A DNA stretch of 64,000 bases from Patescibacteria group bacterium (GTDB lineage: Bacteria > Patescibacteriota > Minisyncoccia > Phycocordibacterales > UBA1006): assembly GCA_028286885.1 (NCBI GenBank), contig JAQBQS010000016.1:2809-66808 (forward strand). Direction: 5' to 3'. Below are positions 5,370 to 51,319 of the stretch, piece after piece. Positions within the stretch are counted from its first letter, which is position 1; the number at the start of each line of letters is the position of its first letter. A program made the position numbers and the translations under genes. A model generated the notes under the pieces. That model was not told the origin of the DNA. It did not search any database and saw nothing but the letters and a program-made list of their open reading frames with translations.

Positions 5370-6104
5370 ATGAAGTTGGTTTTTATTGATGAGACAGATC
5401 GGCAGGCAAGTTCCACAGTCCACGCATTCTTTTCGATTTGTGGGTTGGTTATTGATGAGTCTGAAATTATGGCAACGACAAACGAACTTGAAGAAATTAA
5501 GAAAAAATACAATTTTTCGAATCTAAAGGAATCTAGAAAAAGCGGTCTTTCCGAACAGGAAAAAGTTATTATTTCTACAGAAGTATTTGATTGCCTCAAA
5601 AAACATAACGCATCAATTATTTCAATCGTCTTGGGAGATTTTTCCATGAGCTTTAACATGCCCAAAGATGACCTTTACATGGGAGCAATACAATTCTTGA
5701 TGGAGCGTTTCTGTCTTATTTTAATGAAAGTAAATAGTTGTGGTTTGGCAATATTTGATTGTACAGAAAAGAGATTTGAGAAAAAGCTTAGAGAAAAATT
5801 TTACGAATATATTCAGACTCAAACCGTTCATATGGCTTGGGAGTCAAAACCAAGAGGTCCCATGAGAGATTTCATTCAACCAACTTTATTTTTTGCAGAT
5901 GATGAGCAAAGCATTCTTATTCAAGCGGTTGATCTTATTGCTGTTTCTTTAAACAGTGCGATCGTTAATATTACGCAAAGCAACCCAAAAATCATGGTTG
6001 CAGATCTTCCTTCTGGTAATAAGTTTCTAAACATATACTGGCCACTTTTTGCTTCAAGTTCTTCAGGTAAAGTCGAGGGGTGGGGTGTAAAAGTTTGGGA
6101 TTAA
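5370..6104 (+). CDS. DUF3800-like protein (predicted RNase H-like fold)
   Basis: N-terminal MKLVFIDETD... matches the hydrophobic-DESG start typical of DUF3800; 4-nt intergenic gap to the preceding gene suggests an operon. Confidence 0.4.
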   Translation: MKLVFIDETDRQASSTVHAFFSICGLVIDESEIMATTNELEEIKKKYNFSNLKESRKSGLSEQEKVIISTEVFDCLKKHNASIISIVLGDFSMSFNMPKDDLYMGAIQFLMERFCLILMKVNSCGLAIFDCTEKRFEKKLREKFYEYIQTQTVHMAWESKPRGPMRDFIQPTLFFADDEQSILIQAVDLIAVSLNSAIVNITQSNPKIMVADLPSGNKFLNIYWPLFASSSSGKVEGWGVKVWD

Positions 6105-6361: not shown

Positions 6362-6934
6362 ATGGAACTTGAAACGCAACGATTAATACTTCGAAAAGGC
6401 AAAAGGGGGGACTGGAAAGACATTGTTGAAGGAGCTTCGGATCTGAATGTTTCAAAGAATATGACCACGGTGCCTCATCCCTATGGCAAGTCCGATGCGG
6501 AGTGGTTTATCAATGACTCGATCAAGAAGTGGAATCAAAAGAAAGGATACTCTTTTTTCATTGAATTGAAATCGGAAAAGAAAGTTATCGGTGTGATGAC
6601 TATCGGCGGGATTAGCGAAACCAACGGCACAGCGACAACGGGTTCTTGGGTTAACAAGAAATATTGGAAAAAAGGATATATCACAGAAGCAAAAATAGCG
6701 GTAAATGATTTTGCTTTCAATATGTTAAAACTTCGACGCCTCAACTCGACCGTTTTTACGGAAAATAAAGCATCAAATGCTACTCAGTCAAAAATGGGTT
6801 ACAAGATGGAAGGAATGAGCCGAAAAGCACAAAGATCCAAATCCACCGGCAAGATTCACGATATTAATATTTACGGACTTCTTAAGGAAGACTGGAAAAA
6901 GGCGAGAAAAAATCTTGTCCGAAAAAGTAAATAA
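6362..6934 (+). CDS. GNAT family N-acetyltransferase (RimJ/RimL-like)
   Basis: METQRLILRKGKRGDWKDIVEGASD... N-terminal pattern and length typical of ribosomal-protein-acetyltransferase-like GNATs. Confidence 0.55.
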   Translation: MELETQRLILRKGKRGDWKDIVEGASDLNVSKNMTTVPHPYGKSDAEWFINDSIKKWNQKKGYSFFIELKSEKKVIGVMTIGGISETNGTATTGSWVNKKYWKKGYITEAKIAVNDFAFNMLKLRRLNSTVFTENKASNATQSKMGYKMEGMSRKAQRSKSTGKIHDINIYGLLKEDWKKARKNLVRKSK

Positions 6935-7710
6935 TGAAACGAATATTCACTCCCTACGAACTCGCGCAACTGGCGAAACACACGATTACGGATTTTGACT
7001 TGGAAAAAATTTCAAAAGGACTCGGCGAAACGTTTTTGGATATTCCCGTTGAATACATAACAGGATTCTGCGAGTTTCGGAAACATGATTTCCAAGTAAG
7101 CCGCGATACCCTGATTCCGAGAATAGAAACGGAAGAAATGATTGATATCGGATTAGAATGCGCAGCGGGTATTCTTGAAAAAAACATCGACAAGAAAACA
7201 ATCGCGTTTGCGGATATCGGAACAGGATCGGGAATTATTGGAATTTCATTCGCAAACGAACTGTCCGAGAAGGGAATCATCACCAAAGGCACTCTGTCGG
7301 ATATTTCGCCAAATGCGCTCGAAATTGCAAAGCAAAACGCAAAGCGCATTCTTGGCGAGGAAAACGATCTCGCATTTTTGGAATCGAATTTGCTCGAGAA
7401 TTTTCCAGTCTCGAAATTTGATATTGTGTTCGCAAATTTACCCTACATTCCATCTGGGAATATGAAGGGCTTGGATTCCTCGGTGAAAGACTTTGAGCCT
7501 GTATCGGCACTCGACGGCGGACCCGACGGATTGGACTTGGTCAGGAAGCTCCTACAGCAGGCTCCTGCATTCTTGAACCAAGATGGCATCGTGATTTTAG
7601 AAGTCGATGATTCGCATCTTGATGCAACTGAATTCTTGGAGAACTTTCATGTCGAGATTAGAAAGGATCAGTTTGGAAACAACCGGTTTTGGATCTTGAA
7701 ATTAAAATAA
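6934..7710 (+). CDS. prmC: release factor glutamine N5-methyltransferase PrmC/HemK
   Basis: SAM-binding DIGTGSGIIGIS and catalytic NLPY(IP) = NPPY-type motif; 258 aa. Confidence 0.7.
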   Translation: MKRIFTPYELAQLAKHTITDFDLEKISKGLGETFLDIPVEYITGFCEFRKHDFQVSRDTLIPRIETEEMIDIGLECAAGILEKNIDKKTIAFADIGTGSGIIGISFANELSEKGIITKGTLSDISPNALEIAKQNAKRILGEENDLAFLESNLLENFPVSKFDIVFANLPYIPSGNMKGLDSSVKDFEPVSALDGGPDGLDLVRKLLQQAPAFLNQDGIVILEVDDSHLDATEFLENFHVEIRKDQFGNNRFWILKLK

Positions 7711-8178: not shown

Positions 8179-8859
8179 TTGACTATAAACTTTATTTATG
8201 ACATGATGTTTTGGAATAAAACCGTTATAATTGAACATTTTAAACTAAAAGACAAGAATATGGCTATAAGAAATCAAGACAAAACAGTCATTGTAACCTA
8301 CGGGGGAAGCTTGATGAAGGACTATTCGCTCATCAGCGAACGGTGTGAATCAGTTTGTGATGCGGTAGAGCAGAGTGAAACCGATAAAACATACATTATT
8401 TTGGCAGCAGGATTTAATCCCAAGGAAAAAACCAATAAGCCGTTCAAAGAGTTAATGGCGGAAGACATTGAGATTATGCTCGAAGGAAAAAGATATGAGC
8501 GTATCGCCGACGGTATGTCAGCTGATTTAGTCAAAGGAGAGCATCTCGTCAAAATTATGCCGACAGCGGGAAACCATTGGGGGACACTCAAACAGACGGA
8601 GGCGATGCTGCATGAAATAGGCCTTCTGAAAGATGTCAAAACAATTCATGTTGTCATCACCGAGGAAAACATTCCTCAGCTGAAATTTATCTGGCGGCTT
8701 TTTTACAAAGGCGATGCCAAGCTTGAATTCTCCGGCAAGCCGCGCGGCGGAAGAAGCCATTACTACAGGTACGTGCTGGAAAATTTGCGCAAGGTGAGAG
8801 CGCTCCTCTACTGGTTCTTCAAAAAGGATCTGGAGCGAACGCTTGATATCGATGAATGA
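8179..8859 (+). CDS. hypothetical protein
   Basis: 226-aa ORF; start uncertain (internal Met at MAIRNQDK); no confident motif. Confidence 0.3.
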   Translation: MTINFIYDMMFWNKTVIIEHFKLKDKNMAIRNQDKTVIVTYGGSLMKDYSLISERCESVCDAVEQSETDKTYIILAAGFNPKEKTNKPFKELMAEDIEIMLEGKRYERIADGMSADLVKGEHLVKIMPTAGNHWGTLKQTEAMLHEIGLLKDVKTIHVVITEENIPQLKFIWRLFYKGDAKLEFSGKPRGGRSHYYRYVLENLRKVRALLYWFFKKDLERTLDIDE

Positions 8860-43471: not shown

Positions 43472-44794
43472 ATGAAGACAAAAGTCCTCGTTATTGGTGC
43501 CGACGGGCGCGCAGACGCGCTGGCACGCCAAGCAAGCCTTGGAATCCATTTTTCACATCTGTACGCATTGCCCGGCAATCCGGGAACCAAGCGATGGGCG
43601 ACAACCATCAGCGGTTCGATAACTGATTTCGTAGCCATCGAAAAGGAATGCCTCAAGCACGGCATCACGACGATCGTAGTCGGTCCGGAAGATCCGCTTG
43701 TAAAAGGCATCTCGGAGTATTTTGCAGCCAGCCAATCGTCTGCCCATATCAAAATCGTGGGACCATCTGCCAAGAATGCAAAGATCGAAGGCAGCAAGGC
43801 GCATGCGAAACAATTTATGGATCGCCACGGCATACCGACAGCGCCTTTCCAGATTTTCAAGGAAGACCAGCTGGAACTGGCCAAGCTGTACATCGAACAG
43901 CTGACTGTATTTCCTACTGTCATCAAGGCCGACGGCCTGGCTGCAGGAAAGGGAGTCCTCATCTGTCATACGCCCGAAGAAGCGCTTGCGGCAGTAGAAG
44001 GCATGCTCTCCGGTGCCAAGTTCGGCGATGCGGGAAAGACGATCGTCGTCGAGGAATTCCTTCCGGGAAAAGAAAGCTCGTTCATCGTCATCACTGACGG
44101 AACGGGCGCGTGGAAACTTCTGCCTTTGGCACGCGATTACAAACGCGCGGGCGTTGGCGACACAGGTCTCAACACAGGCGGCATGGGTGTCATCTCGACG
44201 CCGTCTCTCGTGACGGAATCATTCAAGCAGATTGTCACTGAACGCGTCATCGAGCCTACGATCCAAGGATTTATCGCCGATGGAACTCCCTACAAAGGAT
44301 TCCTTTACATTCAGCTCATGGAAGTAGAGGGACAACCGTTTGTTGTCGAGTACAACTGCCGCCTGGGAGATCCTGAAACGGAAGGCATCCTGCCTCTGAT
44401 CAAGAGCGACTTCAGCGAACTTCTCGCGGCGTGCGCAAACGGAACTCTCAAGTATACGAACCTGGAATTCCATGAAGAATGTTCGGCTGTGATCGCGATT
44501 GTTTCAGGAGGCTATCCCGGGGACTTCGAGAAAGACAAGAAGATCATGATTAATAAGTATGCGATCGGCCGCATCGGATGCAACATTTTCTTCGCAGGCG
44601 CGAAAGAGGAACATGGCGAACTTGTTACAAGCGGCGGCAGGGTTCTGTATCTGCAGGCCAATGCCCCTACTCTCAAGGAAGCGTTGAACCGCTGCTATGA
44701 AGCTGCCAAGCATGTCTTCTTCGACAATATGTACTTCCGTACCGACATCGGCGCCGAGGTGCTTGCGCTTGAAGCGATCGGACAGGAAGCATAA
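43472..44794 (+). CDS. purD: phosphoribosylamine--glycine ligase
   Basis: MKTKVLVIGADGRADALA... ATP-grasp PurD architecture; 440 aa. Confidence 0.85.
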   Translation: MKTKVLVIGADGRADALARQASLGIHFSHLYALPGNPGTKRWATTISGSITDFVAIEKECLKHGITTIVVGPEDPLVKGISEYFAASQSSAHIKIVGPSAKNAKIEGSKAHAKQFMDRHGIPTAPFQIFKEDQLELAKLYIEQLTVFPTVIKADGLAAGKGVLICHTPEEALAAVEGMLSGAKFGDAGKTIVVEEFLPGKESSFIVITDGTGAWKLLPLARDYKRAGVGDTGLNTGGMGVISTPSLVTESFKQIVTERVIEPTIQGFIADGTPYKGFLYIQLMEVEGQPFVVEYNCRLGDPETEGILPLIKSDFSELLAACANGTLKYTNLEFHEECSAVIAIVSGGYPGDFEKDKKIMINKYAIGRIGCNIFFAGAKEEHGELVTSGGRVLYLQANAPTLKEALNRCYEAAKHVFFDNMYFRTDIGAEVLALEAIGQEA

Positions 44795-44894
44795 TGAGCA
44801 TCTTCGAATCCGCCTTAACCGGTGGATTTTTTAATGGCATTATCCGACCTCATGGCATTTTACCCCCGCTCCTTTTCGTGATAGCATCAATGGT

Positions 44895-47501
44895 ATGAAT
44901 CTCAATCCTAAAAACTGGTTCGAACTCCAGCAGAAGCGCAAGGCGGTGCGGGCGGACTTGGCCAAGGAAACCGGCATGCGATCCTCCGAGGCTCTCGACA
45001 AAAGCGCGGAAGCCGACGGCATGAACGACCTTCTCGGTGCAATTGCGAGCGGAAACCTCGCGAATGTTTCGCTCGACACCGGAGCCGTCGACGGCGTCGC
45101 AAAATCGGAATATGTCAGGCATCTGCAGGAAACGCTGCGGCAATTGAACGAGGAAGCCGAGAAGTTCGGCCCGGTGACCGAAGAGTCGGTCGAAACCTAC
45201 CGCCAGCAGTCAGGCGAGCATTACGCCTATAAGAAAGTGAACCAGGAACTGCTGAAGCTCGACACTCTGCGCGAGGAGACGGACCGCGCGATTTTCGAAA
45301 TTTTGAAAAACGGCAAGGGCGAAGGCTTTACGCGCATGGACGAAGCGAAGCTCGCCGAGTACGAGAAGATCAAGGGCGCGATCACGAACCGGACGGCGTC
45401 GCTCGAACAGAATCCGGAAACGGCGCTGTTCGTGCGCATGCACACGCTCGACTCGTACCACGATCAGCTCGTCAAGGAAAACTACATCGAGACGCCGTCG
45501 CGAACGGAATACATCGACTGGATCAAGGACCAGATGAAGAACCACCGCGCGGTGCTTCTTGAAGGCGCGACGGGAACCGGAAAAACGGAGCTTCTGATCC
45601 ATACGTCAAAGTCGCTTCTCGGCAAGAACAATCCCGAGATATTGGCCGGAAATCCGCACGTTACGAAATACGATCTCTTGGGAAGCCAGGGATTGGAATC
45701 CGACGAGCATGGAACGAAAACCGTCGACAAGCCTGGATGCCTGCCGCGAGCGATGAAGGACGGCAACCTGCTGATCCTCGACGAGATGAACCAGATCGAA
45801 ACCAAGGTCCGATTCGCGCTCAAGCCGTTTTACCGCTACTCGGGAGTCCGCGGCGGCGAGGTTTCCGTCGAAGGCGTGAACTATCCGGTCAACGACGGAT
45901 TCCTGATCGCGGCTACCGCGAACCTCAAGAGCGAAAAGCACAAGGACCGCTTCGACCTGGACGCGGCCGAGTCGCGCGTATTCGCGATGAAGCGCATCGA
46001 GTACCCTCCGCAAAACGAGCTGTACGACATGGCGCTCGCGGCGCTCCGCAGGAACGACGGAACGTACCTCGTCTCCGAAGGTTCGGCGAAATCGACGCTG
46101 AAGTATCTGGTGGACGCGGCGCGCGACATTCAGGAAGGCTACGAGAAAGCGCTGTCCGCGGGATTTGACCCGTCATCCGGAAAGAAGACGTCGCTTGAAA
46201 AAGCGGTGCTCGATCCCGGCGAATTCATGGCAATGGTCAAGTCGTACACGGCATCCTACGCGTCCGGAAAAACATTCGAGGACCACATCGACGCGCGATT
46301 GGCCGATTTCGTCGCCAAAGGATCGTACCCGGAAAAAGACCGCGTGCTTCTCGCGAAAATTCTGACGTCGAAGGGATTCCTCTTGAAAAACTTTGATCCC
46401 GAAATGCTCCATTTGACGGACGACACGCTGCGAGATTCCCTTGCCCAGTGGCCGATGCCGGCGCAAGACACCCTTGTCCGCGAGCGCGGCACGATGACGG
46501 AACGCGAAGCGGCGATGCTCGATCCGTACGAACTGCGCAAGGAAATGATCGCGAAAACGACCGACAGCTTCGTCGGTATGATTCCCGAGGAAGAAAAGCA
46601 GATGATCCTCAACGCGGCGGAGCGCGGCATCAATTATCTCGAAGCCAAGGAAGCGATCGGGAAAGAAAATTTCCTCGGTCCCGACGAGATCAAGTTCCGA
46701 TTCTCGATCGACGTCAAGAACGCTCCGAAGGTTCCGTTTTCAAAACAGGAACTCATGGACGCGAAAAAGCTCGGCCAGCAGCTGGTTCTGTACGTCGACA
46801 AGACGAAAGACGGCAAGCCCCTGACGATTTCCGCCATGCGCGAGCAGACGAAAAACAAGACGAGCCAGGCAACCGGACTCTTCGCGGACGGCGACGATTA
46901 TTTCAAGAACAACGGGCTTGATCAGGAAACGCCGCGCGTCGGCTGGCGCCTGACTTCCAAGGAGTGCCTGCCGAATTCGGAAAACAAGAACTATTTCGGA
47001 CAGACGCAGGTTGCCGTCGATTACTTGAAAAACGAAGTCTTCAAGGGAACTAAAATTCCCAAGGAATACGCCGAAGCGTTCGACGAATGGGAAGCGGTCA
47101 AGAAAACGAATCTCAAGGAGCAGTCCGAATCGGGCGACAGCGCGAAATGGATGGCCGCGTCGCAGCAGCTCGCGAATCTCAAGATTACGCAGCTGACCCG
47201 CGAGCGATTGTCCGAAGTCATGTACCGCCTCGCGATTCAGGAATCGAAAAACAAAGAGCGTTTGCTCGATTCCGCGGGCCGCACGGTCTACTATACGTGG
47301 ACGAGCTCCCGTGGTTCCGATGGCGACTTGGCTCTCGCCGGCCGCTTCGATTCCGACGGCGTGGATGTGTGCGCGGGTGGGAGCCGAGGGATTCCGGCTC
47401 GCGCATCGGGGTTTGTCTCTCTCGCAGTTGAATTTAGGATATCAGGAATTTTTGAATCATGCGGAACAAACCGCCCGGATAGGGCGGTTTGTGGCGAATG
47501 A
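44895..47501 (+). CDS. AAA+ ATPase (AAA_5/MoxR-like) with long C-terminal extension ending in a DGR variable region; VR is frameshifted as assembled
   Basis: Walker A GATGTGKT, Walker B LLILDEMN; C-terminal ...YYTWTSSRGSDGDLALAGRFDSDGVDV... overlaps VR; in the TR-matching frame the protein would end ...IGVCLSRS* at 47431. Confidence 0.6.
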   Translation: MNLNPKNWFELQQKRKAVRADLAKETGMRSSEALDKSAEADGMNDLLGAIASGNLANVSLDTGAVDGVAKSEYVRHLQETLRQLNEEAEKFGPVTEESVETYRQQSGEHYAYKKVNQELLKLDTLREETDRAIFEILKNGKGEGFTRMDEAKLAEYEKIKGAITNRTASLEQNPETALFVRMHTLDSYHDQLVKENYIETPSRTEYIDWIKDQMKNHRAVLLEGATGTGKTELLIHTSKSLLGKNNPEILAGNPHVTKYDLLGSQGLESDEHGTKTVDKPGCLPRAMKDGNLLILDEMNQIETKVRFALKPFYRYSGVRGGEVSVEGVNYPVNDGFLIAATANLKSEKHKDRFDLDAAESRVFAMKRIEYPPQNELYDMALAALRRNDGTYLVSEGSAKSTLKYLVDAARDIQEGYEKALSAGFDPSSGKKTSLEKAVLDPGEFMAMVKSYTASYASGKTFEDHIDARLADFVAKGSYPEKDRVLLAKILTSKGFLLKNFDPEMLHLTDDTLRDSLAQWPMPAQDTLVRERGTMTEREAAMLDPYELRKEMIAKTTDSFVGMIPEEEKQMILNAAERGINYLEAKEAIGKENFLGPDEIKFRFSIDVKNAPKVPFSKQELMDAKKLGQQLVLYVDKTKDGKPLTISAMREQTKNKTSQATGLFADGDDYFKNNGLDQETPRVGWRLTSKECLPNSENKNYFGQTQVAVDYLKNEVFKGTKIPKEYAEAFDEWEAVKKTNLKEQSESGDSAKWMAASQQLANLKITQLTRERLSEVMYRLAIQESKNKERLLDSAGRTVYYTWTSSRGSDGDLALAGRFDSDGVDVCAGGSRGIPARASGFVSLAVEFRISGIFESCGTNRPDRAVCGE
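47304..47428 (+). repeat. DGR variable repeat (VR)
   Basis: 125 nt matching TR 47696-47818; all 16 substitutions fall at TR adenines, plus a 2-nt length difference (VR TGCGCG vs TR AACA). Confidence 0.85.
47469..47497 (+). other. GC hairpin downstream of VR (DGR homing-associated stem-loop)
   Basis: ACAAACCGCCC-ggata-GGGCGGTTTGT about 40 nt after the VR 3' end, position typical of the hairpin/cruciform that enhances DGR retrohoming. Confidence 0.5.
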
Positions 47502-47695
47502 AAGTGTGCTAGAATGATCCGCACCGGGAATGCGAAGGCATCAATGATGCCTTTCCCCGAAACATACATTACTGCTTGCCTTCCTCTTCGCGCGAGTATT
47601 TCGACAGCCGCGGCGCGCGCGAAAAAATGACATCCTCGACCTTCTTATGATAATTAAGAACGAAGAAGAACTGACCCGGACGGGGGAAGGCAACA

Positions 47696-47818
47696 AGCTC
47701 CCGTGATTCCGATGGCAACTTGGCTCTCGCCGGCAACTTCGATTCCGACGGCGTGAATGTGAACAGGTGGAAGCCGAGGAATTCCGACTCGAACATCGGG
47801 GTTTGTCTCTCTCGAAGT
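47696..47818 (+). repeat. DGR template repeat (TR)
   Basis: Adenine-rich counterpart of VR, with AAC codons at the variable positions; shared 3' IMH-like end CATCGGGGTTTGTCTCTCTCG. Confidence 0.85.
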
Positions 47819-47837
47819 GATAACATGTCAAACGAAA

Positions 47838-47880
47838 ACGGAGCGGGCCCTTCAGGGCCGCGCTCCGTTTTCACTCTCTA
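47838..47880. terminator. GC hairpin with flanking A- and T-runs just 3' of TR and 3' of avd
   Basis: aaaacGGAGCGGGCCCttcaGGGCCgCGCTCCgtttt. Confidence 0.5.
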
Positions 47881-48184
47881 TTTTTTTAATCCAACCGCCG
47901 ATGATTTTTCCAAGTTCCGCCAAGTGTTCCGAGAGGATCACATGCGCCCGGTCGGGAAGGCATTTCGCGTCGTTTGCGATGCGCAGCCGAAGCTGGATGC
48001 TTTTGAGTTCGACGTCGATTTTATTAACCAGCAACAACTGGCTTGCACCCTTCTTGGACCGCGCGAGCATTCCCATCTCGAGCGCTTCGAAGGCCTTGGG
48101 GATGATCGGAAGTCCGAGGGCGTACCGGTCGAATTTTGGCATTTTGCCTACATACATATGCAACGCGACAATGAACTTGCACAT
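47852..48184 (-). CDS. avd: DGR accessory variability determinant (Avd)-like four-helix-bundle protein
   Basis: 110 aa: MCKFIVALHMYVGKMPKFDRYALGLP...HVILSEHLAELGKIIGGWIKKIESE; resembles bAvd (…SIPRKHG… and …LIAEVGRILGSWIARV…); it is the 3' end of the long antisense ORF 47852-50584. Confidence 0.5.
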   Translation of the reverse strand: MCKFIVALHMYVGKMPKFDRYALGLPIIPKAFEALEMGMLARSKKGASQLLLVNKIDVELKSIQLRLRIANDAKCLPDRAHVILSEHLAELGKIIGGWIKKIESENGARP

Positions 48185-48216
48185 TTTGGCCGCGAAAGCG
48201 CTCGACGCCAAAATTC

Positions 48217-48230
48217 GGGGGGGGGGGGGG
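48217..48230. repeat. homopolymeric G14 tract between divergent avd and RT starts
   Basis: aaattcGGGGGGGGGGGGGGtgattcag. Confidence 0.8.
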
Positions 48231-49279
48231 TGATTCAGGACACCTATTCTAACATCATCTCGCTCAAAAACTTGTTCACCGCGTGGAAGGAATTTATCAT
48301 CGGCAAGAAAAATAAAGCGGACGTTCTTGAATTCGGCACGATGTACGAGCAGGAATTGATCGCGCTCCACGCTTCGCTCGATCTCGGACGGTATTCGCAC
48401 GGCGGCTACCACGCGTTCATGGTCTGCGATCCGAAGCGCAGATCGATCAACAAGGCCCGGGTGCGCGACCGCGTTTTGCATCACGCGATCCACAGGCTTC
48501 TCGTTCCGATATTCGAGCCCGGGTTCATTTTCGATTCCTATTCGTCGAGAAAAGCCAAAGGCGTCCATGCGGCGCGCGAGCGATTCCGCGAATTCGCGCG
48601 CGTGCTGTCGCGGAACAATACGAAAACAGTCTGGGTTCTCAAATGCGACATCAGGAAATTTTTCGATTCGGTCGACCATGCGGTTCTTATGGGCCTTCTC
48701 GCGCGCAGGCTGAAGTGCCCGCGGACGCTCGCGCTTCTCGGCAATATCATCCGAAGCTACGACTCCGGCGCGGGGAAGGGAATACCGCTCGGCAACCTGA
48801 CAAGCCAGCTGTTTTCGAACGTCTACATGGATCCGTTCGACCAGTTCATGAAAAGGATCGTCCGCGCGAAATGCTATATAAGGTACGCGGACGATTTCGT
48901 GATCCTTTCCCGCGACCGCGACTATTTGGCACGCCTGATTCCGACGATCAACGCCTTCCTGGACAAAGACCTCAAGCTCCGGATGCATCCGAACAAAGTC
49001 GAGATCAAGAAATGGCATTCCGGAATCGATTTTCTGGGGGCGACGATGTTCCCGCATTTTCGCGTTCTGCGCACCAAGACCAAAAGGCGCGCGTTCAGAA
49101 AAATCAGGAAGAACATTATTTTTTACAAGAACGGACTCATCCAATACGAGGATCTTGTTTCGATCATCCGTTCGTATCTGGGAATCATGCAGCACGTGGA
49201 CTCGTTCGGCGTCAGGCGAGACCTCTTGTCGATGATCAGGAGCATGGGATCCGCAGGTGTGGAATTCTCGAAATTGTGA
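48230..49279 (+). CDS. DGR reverse transcriptase
   Basis: RT motifs IRKFFDSVDH (motif 2), IPLGNLTSQLFSNVYMDPFD (DGR-specific [I/L]GxxxSQ in place of QGxxxSP), YADDFVIL (YxDD); about 349 aa from the GTG at 48230; the track ORF starts upstream at 47720 inside TR. Confidence 0.8.
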   Translation: MIQDTYSNIISLKNLFTAWKEFIIGKKNKADVLEFGTMYEQELIALHASLDLGRYSHGGYHAFMVCDPKRRSINKARVRDRVLHHAIHRLLVPIFEPGFIFDSYSSRKAKGVHAARERFREFARVLSRNNTKTVWVLKCDIRKFFDSVDHAVLMGLLARRLKCPRTLALLGNIIRSYDSGAGKGIPLGNLTSQLFSNVYMDPFDQFMKRIVRAKCYIRYADDFVILSRDRDYLARLIPTINAFLDKDLKLRMHPNKVEIKKWHSGIDFLGATMFPHFRVLRTKTKRRAFRKIRKNIIFYKNGLIQYEDLVSIIRSYLGIMQHVDSFGVRRDLLSMIRSMGSAGVEFSKL

Positions 49280-49291
49280 TAGTCTTGGCAC

Positions 49292-51319
49292 ATGAAAGGC
49301 CCCGTTTTCAAGATCGAACAACAAGACGCCGGCGATAAAAACGCGAAGCAAGAAGGCAAAGCCGCCCGGGTATTTGAGACCCATAAGGACTTTTTCGCCA
49401 ATTACACGAAACACGGCAACTTGGAAATCAAGCCCGCAACCGACGCGGGACTTGAAACGTCGGCGATCGATTTGTCGGATCCGAAGCGTCCGAAAATATT
49501 CCTCCACGACGATTTTCTCGAGGAAAAAAGCGGCGGAAGCGACATCGCGGGACTGTGGGCCGCGTCGCACGAGTGCGAGCATCTCGTGGAACTTTTGGGG
49601 CTCTTGAACGAAAAGGACGGGCCGGGAATCTGGCGCGACCGGCAGGCGGCGATCGATGCCGATCCGAGCTTGCACATTCTGGACAATTGCCTGGACGACG
49701 TGAAAATGAACCGAAGCGTCGTTGCGAAGGCTCCGGTCACGCGCGGCAGCTTCCATGAAATTTACGACAAGAAGCTTTTTGCGGACACGGATTTTACCAA
49801 GATCCCGAAACATCTGCAGTTTGCGTACGCGTTGCTGAACGAAGACCCGATCAACGGAGGGCGCGCGTGCACCGTTTCGCCCGACGTGCGCCAGGAAATT
49901 ACGCGCCTCCGGGCCGTTCAAAACGGGCAAAAGCAAAATTTGTTCAACTTCATGACCAATCCCGATGTCGGAATGAAGGACCGCCTGAAGCTGCAGGAAA
50001 TGTTTTTCGAGCCGGTCTATAAAAAATTCAAGCGGGACGACGACAAGAATTGGGAGCCGCCCAAAGACGGCGACAAGAAAGAAGGCGAGGGAAGCCCCGA
50101 TCAGAATCAAGGACAGCAAGGCGAAGGGCAGGATCAAGAAGGCGGCCAGCCTCCAAAGTCCCAAGACCAAAAACCTTCCGGCGACGGAAAAGGCAAGCCG
50201 GAGAAAAAAGAAGGTCCGTCCGAAAACGGCGATCCGAAAGATTCCGAATCCGAACCCGGAGACGGCAAGAAAACGGATGAAAAATACAAGGAGCTCTACG
50301 ACAAGTTCAACGAGGCGATGAAGCAGGCCGTCCCGAAAGATCTCGAGGAAAAAGCCGTCGAGGAATTCATCGACAACAAATCCGATCGGAAAAGCTACGA
50401 GGAGCAATCGCTCGAAGCGTACGCGCTCGCCGAAGGCGTGACGGTCGAAGATTTGAAAGGCTATCGCCGCTACATCGACCGCGTCGAGGAATTGCGCAAT
50501 CCCGAGACCGACGAACTGCTGATCGAGGAAATCCGCAACATTTTCCGCCGCATCATCGCCGAGCGCACCGCAAAGCTGCCGCAATCTAAAATGCCGCAGA
50601 GCGAAGGCGTCACGATCCGGTTTCCCGCCCAGGCCGTCGTCCAGACCAAAGCCGGAAATCCCGAACCCGAAGTCTGGCAGACGATCGAAGAGAAGGAGGC
50701 GGTCAAGGAATTGATCGGCAAGTTCGACGTGACGCTGGTGTGCGACCGGTCCCGCTCCATGGGTTCAGGCGGAAAACTGGAAGCCCAGCGGACGACGTCG
50801 GCTCTGGTTTTGGAAGCTTTGCGCGAGTTCGGCACGGACCTCGAGGACGCGGCGGCGGATTTGGAATCGAATCTCGAAATCAGGACGGAAGTTTGGTCGT
50901 TCGGCGACGACGCGCAGTGCGAACTTTTGAAAGCACTGTCTCCGACGCTCTCCGAAAAAGAACGGGTGCTCGTCTATCAGAAGCTGTCGCAGGTGCCCGG
51001 AAACTCGACCAAGGATTACCAGACCCTCGAAAAGCTGCTGAAGAGTTTGGACCCGAAAGATCTGGACGCGATCGCCGAGAAGAAGCTGCGCAAAATCGTC
51101 TTTGTCGTTTCCGACGGCGAGAGCAGCGACGTCGCCGCAACGAAACGGATTCTCGCGAAGCTTCGCGAAAAAGGAATTCTCGTCTACGGAATCGGCGTCA
51201 CGAACGAAGCGCGATCGATCGAGACGACCTATGCGCCCTCCGGCCGCGTCTGTCCCGACCAGAACCAGCTCCCGGTTGTCATGGGCGAACTCTTGAAAGA
51301 GCAGCTGGAGACCGTCTGA
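49292..51319 (+). CDS. vWA-domain protein (MoxR-partner type) with acidic/Gln/Gly-rich low-complexity linker
   Basis: MIDAS VCDRSRSMGSGGK (DxSxS), later IVFVVSDGESSDV; 675 aa; sits where the vWA partner of a MoxR-type ATPase is expected. Confidence 0.6.
   Translation: MKGPVFKIEQQDAGDKNAKQEGKAARVFETHKDFFANYTKHGNLEIKPATDAGLETSAIDLSDPKRPKIFLHDDFLEEKSGGSDIAGLWAASHECEHLVELLGLLNEKDGPGIWRDRQAAIDADPSLHILDNCLDDVKMNRSVVAKAPVTRGSFHEIYDKKLFADTDFTKIPKHLQFAYALLNEDPINGGRACTVSPDVRQEITRLRAVQNGQKQNLFNFMTNPDVGMKDRLKLQEMFFEPVYKKFKRDDDKNWEPPKDGDKKEGEGSPDQNQGQQGEGQDQEGGQPPKSQDQKPSGDGKGKPEKKEGPSENGDPKDSESEPGDGKKTDEKYKELYDKFNEAMKQAVPKDLEEKAVEEFIDNKSDRKSYEEQSLEAYALAEGVTVEDLKGYRRYIDRVEELRNPETDELLIEEIRNIFRRIIAERTAKLPQSKMPQSEGVTIRFPAQAVVQTKAGNPEPEVWQTIEEKEAVKELIGKFDVTLVCDRSRSMGSGGKLEAQRTTSALVLEALREFGTDLEDAAADLESNLEIRTEVWSFGDDAQCELLKALSPTLSEKERVLVYQKLSQVPGNSTKDYQTLEKLLKSLDPKDLDAIAEKKLRKIVFVVSDGESSDVAATKRILAKLREKGILVYGIGVTNEARSIETTYAPSGRVCPDQNQLPVVMGELLKEQLETV

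Follow-up and report, generated by a model that had tools for sequence, protein, structure and literature searches.

A two-nucleotide insertion beside a mutated AAC codon frameshifts the variable repeat of a diversity-generating retroelement in a Patescibacteria genome

When the variable repeat (VR) of a diversity-generating retroelement (DGR) is found out of frame in a metagenome-assembled genome (MAG), is the element dead, is the assembly wrong, or has the reverse transcriptase (RT) of the element slipped? The question is raised by a DGR of a Patescibacteria group bacterium (GenBank assembly GCA_028286885.1, contig JAQBQS010000016.1), of which a stretch of 64,000 nucleotides, positions 2,809 to 66,808 of the forward strand, was analysed; this whole stretch is called the window hereafter, and coordinates count from its first letter. 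The VR, located at the 3' end of a long open reading frame (ORF), is two bases longer than the template repeat (TR) from which it is copied, and the end of the target protein is thereby shifted out of frame. Frameshifts of this kind and elements of this class have both been described before, and the present case adds an instance, not a new mechanism. The parts on which the argument rests are the following.

44895-47501, plus strand: target gene in its assembled form; the product has 868 aa and matches NCBI MDB4984716.1 / JWM20_895 (hypothetical protein, Patescibacteria MAG, contig of 140.5 kb) at 100% identity
47301-47428, plus strand: VR, 128 nt, with 15 substitutions relative to the TR, every one at a TR adenine, and two extra bases
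47693-47818, plus strand: TR, 126 nt, intergenic, with 27 adenines and all AAC/AAT codons in frame: TSSRDSDGNLALAGNFDSDGVNVNRWKPRNSDSNIGVCLSRS
47852-48241, minus strand: avd, encoding a bAvd four-helix bundle (Pfam bAvd, 52 bits, cut-off 40)
48158-49279, plus strand: RT, 373 aa from the ATG at 48158, with an alternative GTG start at 48230 (Pfam RVT_1, E 3e-23)

RT, Avd, TR and VR stand together, and the locus is a complete DGR of the type common in Patescibacteria. Its gene order, namely target with VR, TR, avd on the opposite strand, and RT, recurs in relatives. The RT translation carries the motifs IPLGNLTSQ and YADD, the SQ dipeptide being a marker of the DGR RT clade (PMC3521204). NCBIfam holds no DGR RT model, and its RT matches all fell far below cut-off, the best being a group II intron RT; the DivGenRetAVD model scored 55 bits on avd (E 8e-15, below its cut-off of 80).

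The direct repeats were detected independently of an earlier note on this DNA, made from the letters alone, and were then aligned in register. In this alignment the VR, which is the upstream copy and forms the 3' end of the long ORF, differs from the TR by 11 A-to-G and four A-to-C substitutions, none being A-to-T; a further 12 TR adenines are unchanged, and all 99 of the 99 non-adenine positions are identical. With adenine making up 21.4% of the TR, the probability that 15 of 15 mismatches fall on adenine by chance is p ~9e-11. TR patterns with N in place of the adenines match the VR and TR sites only, with 0 chance matches expected in the window, and the same adenine-masked search found no further VRs or TR copies there. 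An A-free, GC-rich 3' end resembling the site of initiation of mutagenic homing (IMH), TCGGGGTTTGTCTCTCTCG, is the same in both repeats, divergence beginning after ...AGT. The DGR is apparently active. The earlier note had arrived at the DGR reading as well, and it is borne out in full: RT, bAvd gene and TR are present, and the target ORF carries a VR in its 3'-terminal part. It had counted 16 substitutions: their restriction to TR adenines is upheld, and the count is 15, of which 14 lie within 47304-47428 and one at 47303. The lengths it gave (125 nt for the VR, 123 nt for the TR) are correct within its coordinates, and the 2-nt difference that it reported is real (VR GTGTGCGCGGGTGG against TR GTGAACAGGTGG).

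The mutated AAC codons of the VR share a further trait. Three of the four AAC codons of the TR have become CGC (Arg) in the VR and the fourth has become GAC; the repeated AAC-to-CGC change, together with the lack of any A-to-T, may reflect either a mutational bias of the RT or selection for arginine. The three CGC codons are the following.

47343-47345, plus strand: CGC in the VR, AAC at 47735-47737 in the TR
47372-47374, plus strand: CGC in the VR, AAC at 47762-47764 in the TR
47402-47404, plus strand: CGC in the VR, AAC at 47792-47794 in the TR

Where do the two extra bases sit, and what do they do to the frame? Three further features are needed here.

47370-47371, plus strand: inserted TG, which turns TGTG into TGTGTG, immediately 5' of an AAC-to-CGC codon
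47372-47431, plus strand: the TR-frame (ancestral) end of the target, RGWEPRDSGSRIGVCLSRS then TGA, reached only without the two extra bases
47466-47492: hairpin rich in G and C, with a stem of 11 bp and the loop GGATA, 37 nt past the VR (z = -5.1)

In the alignment, VR GTG-TG-CGC-GGG-TGG stands against TR GTG-AAC-AGG-TGG, and an added TG followed by AAC-to-CGC and A-to-G is the most parsimonious arrangement. The placement is ambiguous within 47366-47375, the other reading being AAC-to-TGC plus an inserted CG; the AAC-to-CGC change beside the insertion is also found at two further AAC codons of the same VR.

Which frame is the real one is answered by the homologues, of which 26 matched the target and 66 the C-terminal domain alone, the latter being mostly stand-alone proteins of 250-400 aa. 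Across more than 70 of them the C-terminus reads Y.WT.SR..G.LV.VG.FD..G..V..W.P......IGV(C/S)(P/L/F)SR, with the stop 0-3 residues later; the closest relative, P0002 (67% identity), ends ...GGWRPRREYSDIGVCLSRS. The TR-frame end of the target aligns with the end of every family member. The earlier note had described the ORF 44895-47501 as continuing in a shifted frame and the frame of 47087-47431 as ending ...IGVCLSRS at 47431, and had taken the TR-matching frame for the genuine one; the descriptions are accurate, and the family ending W.P...IGVxxSR so close to the stop identifies that frame as the real one. Codons 47370-47498 of the assembled target, its last 43, are out of frame, and the insertion displaces the last 19 codons of the true target end, a defect of the present allele and not of the element. 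The assembled tail, CAGGSRGIPARASGFVSLAVEFRISGIFESCGTNRPDRAVCGE up to the stop, runs for 43 residues through the intergenic hairpin and has no likeness to any homologue. When the two extra bases are taken out, the window sequence reads ...DVRGWEPRDSGSRIGVCLSRS followed by the stop, and the family Trp, Pro, Gly and Arg are regained. Because the 825 residues before the insertion keep to the frame of the family and the end is regained without the two bases, the sequence is that of one uncompensated frameshift inside the VR. The annotated MDB4984716.1 contains the 43-residue out-of-frame tail; the family-consistent product has 844 aa and ends RGWEPRDSGSRIGVCLSRS.

What the frameshift takes away can be judged from the fold. 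The target consists of an AAA_5 (MoxR/dynein-like) ATPase domain at residues 220-311 (Pfam), a long helical middle and a C-terminal domain with the VR, and no Pfam family spans the VR domain in scans of the target and of the homologues of its C-terminal domain. An AlphaFold2 model of P0002, built on an alignment of 67 sequences, reached a mean pLDDT (predicted local distance difference test) of 89, with values of 94-98 in the C-terminal domain; in this model, the VR domain at the end of the target ORF is a C-type-lectin/FGE (formylglycine-generating enzyme) fold. The frameshift maps to residue 463 of P0002, inside the strand 461-466, and the final strand, 478-481, is also lost; according to the model, the W-x-P...IGVxxSR end makes up half of one core beta-strand and the whole of the last one. 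The lost Trp (W466 of P0002) is conserved in at least 90% of the family, and the Pro, Gly and Arg are nearly invariant. Since the conserved end is lost and 43 unrelated codons are read through the hairpin instead, the present target allele is very probably non-functional.

Are such insertions found elsewhere in the family? Related loci were gathered by exact look-ups and by scanning contigs of metagenomes and of GTDB with proteins as guides, and two of these loci carry an insertion of one base in the VR.

Locus L001, protein P0006: +1 insertion, TR TGG-AAA-CCC, VR TGG-GGGG-CCC
Locus L022, protein P0079: +1 insertion, TR AAC-CGA-GTG, VR GAC-CGA-A-GTG

In the window, L001 and L022 alike, the difference is an insertion in the VR, located at, or at most 3 nt from, a TR AAC or AAA. 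Counted by protein, the family has about 75 members, of which 3 or 4 lack the canonical end. The locus of the closest relative, L002 (67% identity), has its VR in frame and a different TR, its contig stopping before the TR. No in-frame VR allele from the same species was found in the 90% cluster, which has one member.

Frameshifting length differences between the repeats are known from other DGRs. Wu et al. (2018, NAR 46:11, PMC5758913) surveyed 372 DGRs and reported that TR and VR differ in length in 25, with a frameshift in 11 of them and with 74% of the indels adjacent to AAC, and ascribed them to slippage of the RT, which would go out of register following two mismatched incorporations. 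For the reconstituted DGR of BPP-1, transient template slippage by bRT was likewise proposed in 2026 (PMC12875486). The window fits the description of Wu et al.: the VR exceeds the TR by a length not divisible by three, the difference abuts a TR AAC, the remaining changes are of the A-to-N kind, and the end of the target is frameshifted. Beyond those indels, a structure model, together with the comparison of more than 70 homologues, shows here that conserved core strands are removed.

The sequence of events favoured here would then run as follows. The RT would copy TR RNA into cDNA, placing bases at random opposite adenines, and this cDNA would replace the VR in the 3'-terminal part of the MoxR-like ATPase gene. 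In the last rewriting on record, 15 of 27 adenines were changed and a TG was added beside the doubly mutated AAC codon, most likely as the RT slipped on the TGTG repeat just past two mismatched incorporations. A later round of retrohoming could overwrite the insertion, because the A-free 3' end of the VR, 69 nt of 5' homology, the TR, avd and the RT are all intact. In the BPP-1 system, a reporter VR with 18 nt deleted is made whole again by retrohoming (PMC12875486), which indicates that a VR indel can be overwritten. That RT slippage at AAC/TGTG during the last retrohoming produced a null allele which the intact cassette may later replace is given a probability of about 0.5, in which origin, loss of function and reversibility are taken together.

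Several points weigh against it. Gap-free pairing of VR and TR, with mismatches almost entirely at adenines, holds for 15 VRs of nine loci (L003, L005, L006 with three VRs, L010 with two, L015, L020 with three, L023 with two, L024 and L025), so that indels are uncommon in the family. L001 and L022 were chosen for the aberrant-looking C-termini of their proteins and form a biased sample; moreover, A or AAN touches about 29-44% of TR junctions, and the joint chance of the association at three loci, about 0.05, is weakly significant. The 90% protein cluster of the target consists of one protein from one contig, with no second allele for comparison. Finally, two other origins, an artefact of the consensus and replication slippage on TGTG after homing, would each account for the insertion, and the latter would leave the identical sequence.

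The first of these holds that the population carries in-frame VR alleles and that sequencing or assembly went wrong at a hypervariable site. The contig belongs to a MAG, and an active DGR is expected to keep the VR heterogeneous in the population; among the relatives, the insertion of L001 sits in a run of six G, and homopolymer tracts in the cassettes of L003, L006 and L024 break two ORFs at once, possibly through miscalled lengths. A gain of the dinucleotide TG is, on the other hand, atypical of short-read errors, and a de Bruijn path would presumably need supporting k-mers for a shift of 2 nt. The rest of the VR also keeps a clean A-only pattern with 99/99 non-A matches, a G14 tract nearby is in frame for the RT, so that the assembly is not visibly indel-prone here, and VR frameshift indels beside AAC are documented across the DGRs of GenBank (PMC5758913). 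An artefact is judged possible and somewhat unlikely.

Ordinary replication slippage on TGTG after the last homing, which would make the target an early pseudogene, is unlikely. Strand slippage classically turns (TG)2 into (TG)3, and the frameshifted tail is unlike any homologue; yet a dinucleotide repeat of 4 nt is a weak substrate, and the locus shows no sign of decay, the 2.4 kb of upstream ORF, the RT, avd and the TR being intact and no non-A difference separating VR and TR. Besides, the three insertions of the family all lie at mutated adenine runs, in agreement with the AAC association of PMC5758913.

That the frameshift is tolerated or used, through programmed ribosomal frameshifting or as a functional variant tail of 43 aa, is very improbable: it draws on the idea raised by Wu et al. 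(2018, PMC5758913) that non-canonical mutagenesis might add diversity, against which stand the absence of an X XXY YYZ slippery heptamer around 47355-47385, a tail that crosses a conserved intergenic hairpin, the deletion of conserved Trp, Pro, Gly and Arg positions and of two lectin-fold strands, and shifted tails of P0001, P0006 and P0079 that have nothing in common. The removal of conserved core strands in particular argues against the frameshift being useful extra diversity. Programmed -1/+2 frameshifting was ruled out, as no slippery heptamer is present near the insertion and the shifted tail is unconserved.

RT slippage during retrohoming thus has a bearing on the alternative left by the earlier note, a consensus artefact or an inactivating indel. 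That pair is incomplete, for Wu et al. documented frameshifting length differences and ascribed them to RT slippage, and two further loci of the family have +1 insertions. The word inactivating is probably right for this allele, in which core strands of the lectin fold are lost; the inactivation need not be permanent, since retrohoming overwrites the VR.

Which genes and signals surround the cassette, and what do they resemble? The following features lie around it.

47627-47654, plus strand: sigma-70-like promoter match, ATGACA-16-GATAAT, 10/12, about 40 nt upstream of the TR, a consensus match only
47834-47872: strong hairpin, 15 nt past the TR, overlapping the avd stop codon on the other strand (z = -7.1)
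49292-51319, plus strand: vWA-domain protein, 675 aa (Pfam), directly after the RT

The hairpin after the TR differs from the GC-rich one after the VR and probably serves either to terminate transcription in both directions or as a 3' element in the RNA of the TR. The stem of the 47466-47492 hairpin, through which the frameshifted ORF reads, is conserved in L002, the 67%-identical locus. Two long ORFs are misleading: 47720-49279 (plus strand, 519 aa) begins inside the TR and crosses avd antisense into the RT, and 47852-50584 (minus strand, 910 aa) is an open frame antisense to the vWA gene and the RT, in which avd takes up no more than the final 110-130 codons or so.

The vWA protein is likely the partner of the MoxR-like ATPase target; NCBIfam gave nothing useful for either protein. 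A neighbourhood of AAA_5, vWA and VR protein recurs in L023, where a vWA/CobT_C protein, an AAA_5 protein and a VR protein occur together. In that locus a single TR (8433-8545, reverse strand) serves two VRs, 5793-5905 and 6857-6969, which end an AAA_5 ATPase and a separate 326-aa lectin-domain protein, respectively; the TR-avd-RT cassette faces the opposite way from the targets, and the vWA/CobT_C protein lies upstream. As for the base composition of the window, the G+C content is 53-57% in the target/DGR/vWA block (44000-51000), 41-48% in 40-44 kb and 54-64 kb, and down to 34-39% elsewhere; the block may be an island gained by horizontal transfer. The cassettes of two relatives are adjoined by a large serine recombinase with the domains Resolvase, Recombinase and Zn_ribbon_recom (L022, 4812-6122; L024, 8760-10082), a hint that a mobile element carries the cassette; no such recombinase flanks the cassette in the window.

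Among known systems, those of the candidate phyla radiation (CPR) are close in architecture; there, Wu et al. (2018, PMC5758913) described DGR targets with P-loop/midasin-type AAA domains, and the B3 arrangement (avd, TR and RT only) makes up 90% of their set. The DGR of the window is similar to B3, its TR being followed by avd and RT with no other accessory genes. It also resembles the CPR targets g1 / UVR4, having a Patescibacteria host and an AAA ATPase upstream of a C-terminal VR without a lectin domain recognisable by Pfam; the likeness to the VR class UVR4 is one of description. Wu et al. left the fold of the g1/UVR4 VRs open, whereas the model obtained here suggests a C-type-lectin/FGE fold. 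Compared with the C-type-lectin DGR proteins TvpA of Treponema denticola (PDB 2y3c) and Mtd of a Bordetella phage (PDB 1yu0), the sequence identity is about 11-12%, and the lectin domain of the window is fused to a MoxR-like ATPase of cytoplasmic type, instead of being part of a phage tail fibre or a lipoprotein.

A second likeness concerns the MoxR-vWA systems with a TvpA-like lectin domain diversified by a DGR (Kaur et al. 2020, eLife, PMC7159879). There as in the window, a MoxR-clade AAA+ ATPase, a vWA protein and a DGR-diversified FGS/lectin domain related to TvpA are encoded together. In the systems of Kaur et al., however, the lectin is usually on the vWA protein, the hosts are cyanobacteria or gammaproteobacteria, and VMAP is the third component; here, the lectin is on the ATPase, and on a separate small protein in L022 and L023 (VMAP and iSTAND were not searched for).

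One more feature of the cassette may touch on its activity, namely a simple-sequence repeat that avd and RT have in common where their 5' ends overlap, and which recurs in many DGRs of Patescibacteria. Its counterparts were read in nine relatives, in the coordinates of each locus.

48217-48230, both strands: G14:C14 homopolymer of the window, in the antisense overlap of the 5' ends of avd (minus strand, reads PPPP) and RT (plus strand, reads GGGG)
L001, 3435-3444: G10
L003, 8380-8390: G11
L006, 12708-12717: G10
L024, 7672-7682: G11
L025, 7685-7698: (AG)7
L026, about 1146-1155: C10
L027, about 1898-1908: C11
L028, about 396-404: C9
L029, about 2525-2540: (CA)8

The G14 run is the sole G/C run of at least 8 in the window. 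The avd frame is open across the C14 tract (NHPPPPRILASS...), its first canonical starts being a TTG near 48206 and an ATG near 48186. The Avd proteins of L025 and L024 are about 88% identical, yet they have different types of repeat at the same site; the conserved feature is the presence of a repeat and not the encoded peptide. Likewise, among the 120 best of 663 Avd relatives, about 20 begin with M(x0-5)PPP and others have THTHTH, RERERE or LSLS at this place, about 13 of the 120 being N-terminally truncated gene calls. A role of the G-run as a polypurine tract or G-quadruplex was ruled out, as its site is taken by (AC)n or (AG)n in relatives. Selection on the protein for a PPP motif at the N-terminus of Avd was ruled out as the sole reason, pure C runs occurring in 8/8 of the proline-encoding tracts that were read.

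At the tract lengths assembled for L003, L006 and L024, the two ORFs that start with ATG are each out of frame by one base, and one single-base change mends both; in L025 both ORFs are in frame, and in the window the RT is. The repeat thus lies in a 5' coding region and its length differences between relatives switch the frame, as is characteristic of contingency repeats. Either the tract works through strand slippage as a switch for both DGR proteins at once, or assemblies routinely miscall its length; alternative starts in other frames (window, L003, L026) could blunt a switch. In the literature searched, which did not cover Paul et al. 2017 (Nat Microbiol), no paper was found that links DGRs with such repeats. 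A tentative and rather doubtful proposal is that mutator and target are both stochastically switchable in this clade of Patescibacteria DGRs, a slip of one unit toggling avd and RT together and slippage at AAC writing null VRs that can be erased. Were such a doubly phase-variable system true, the frameshift of the window would be one visible state of it, and not damage.

To sum up, the deposited end of MDB4984716.1 is misleading, the family-consistent one being ...RGWEPRDSGSRIGVCLSRS, and, on the strength of the model, the VR class of Patescibacteria listed as 'unknown' may now be placed in the C-type-lectin fold. Three family-specific examples are added to the known association of VR indels with AAC. 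As the rest of the cassette of the window is intact, a frameshifted VR in a MAG should not be taken as a dead DGR. The repeat shared by avd and RT could matter more: if its length variation is real, the activity of the DGR would itself be under phase variation.

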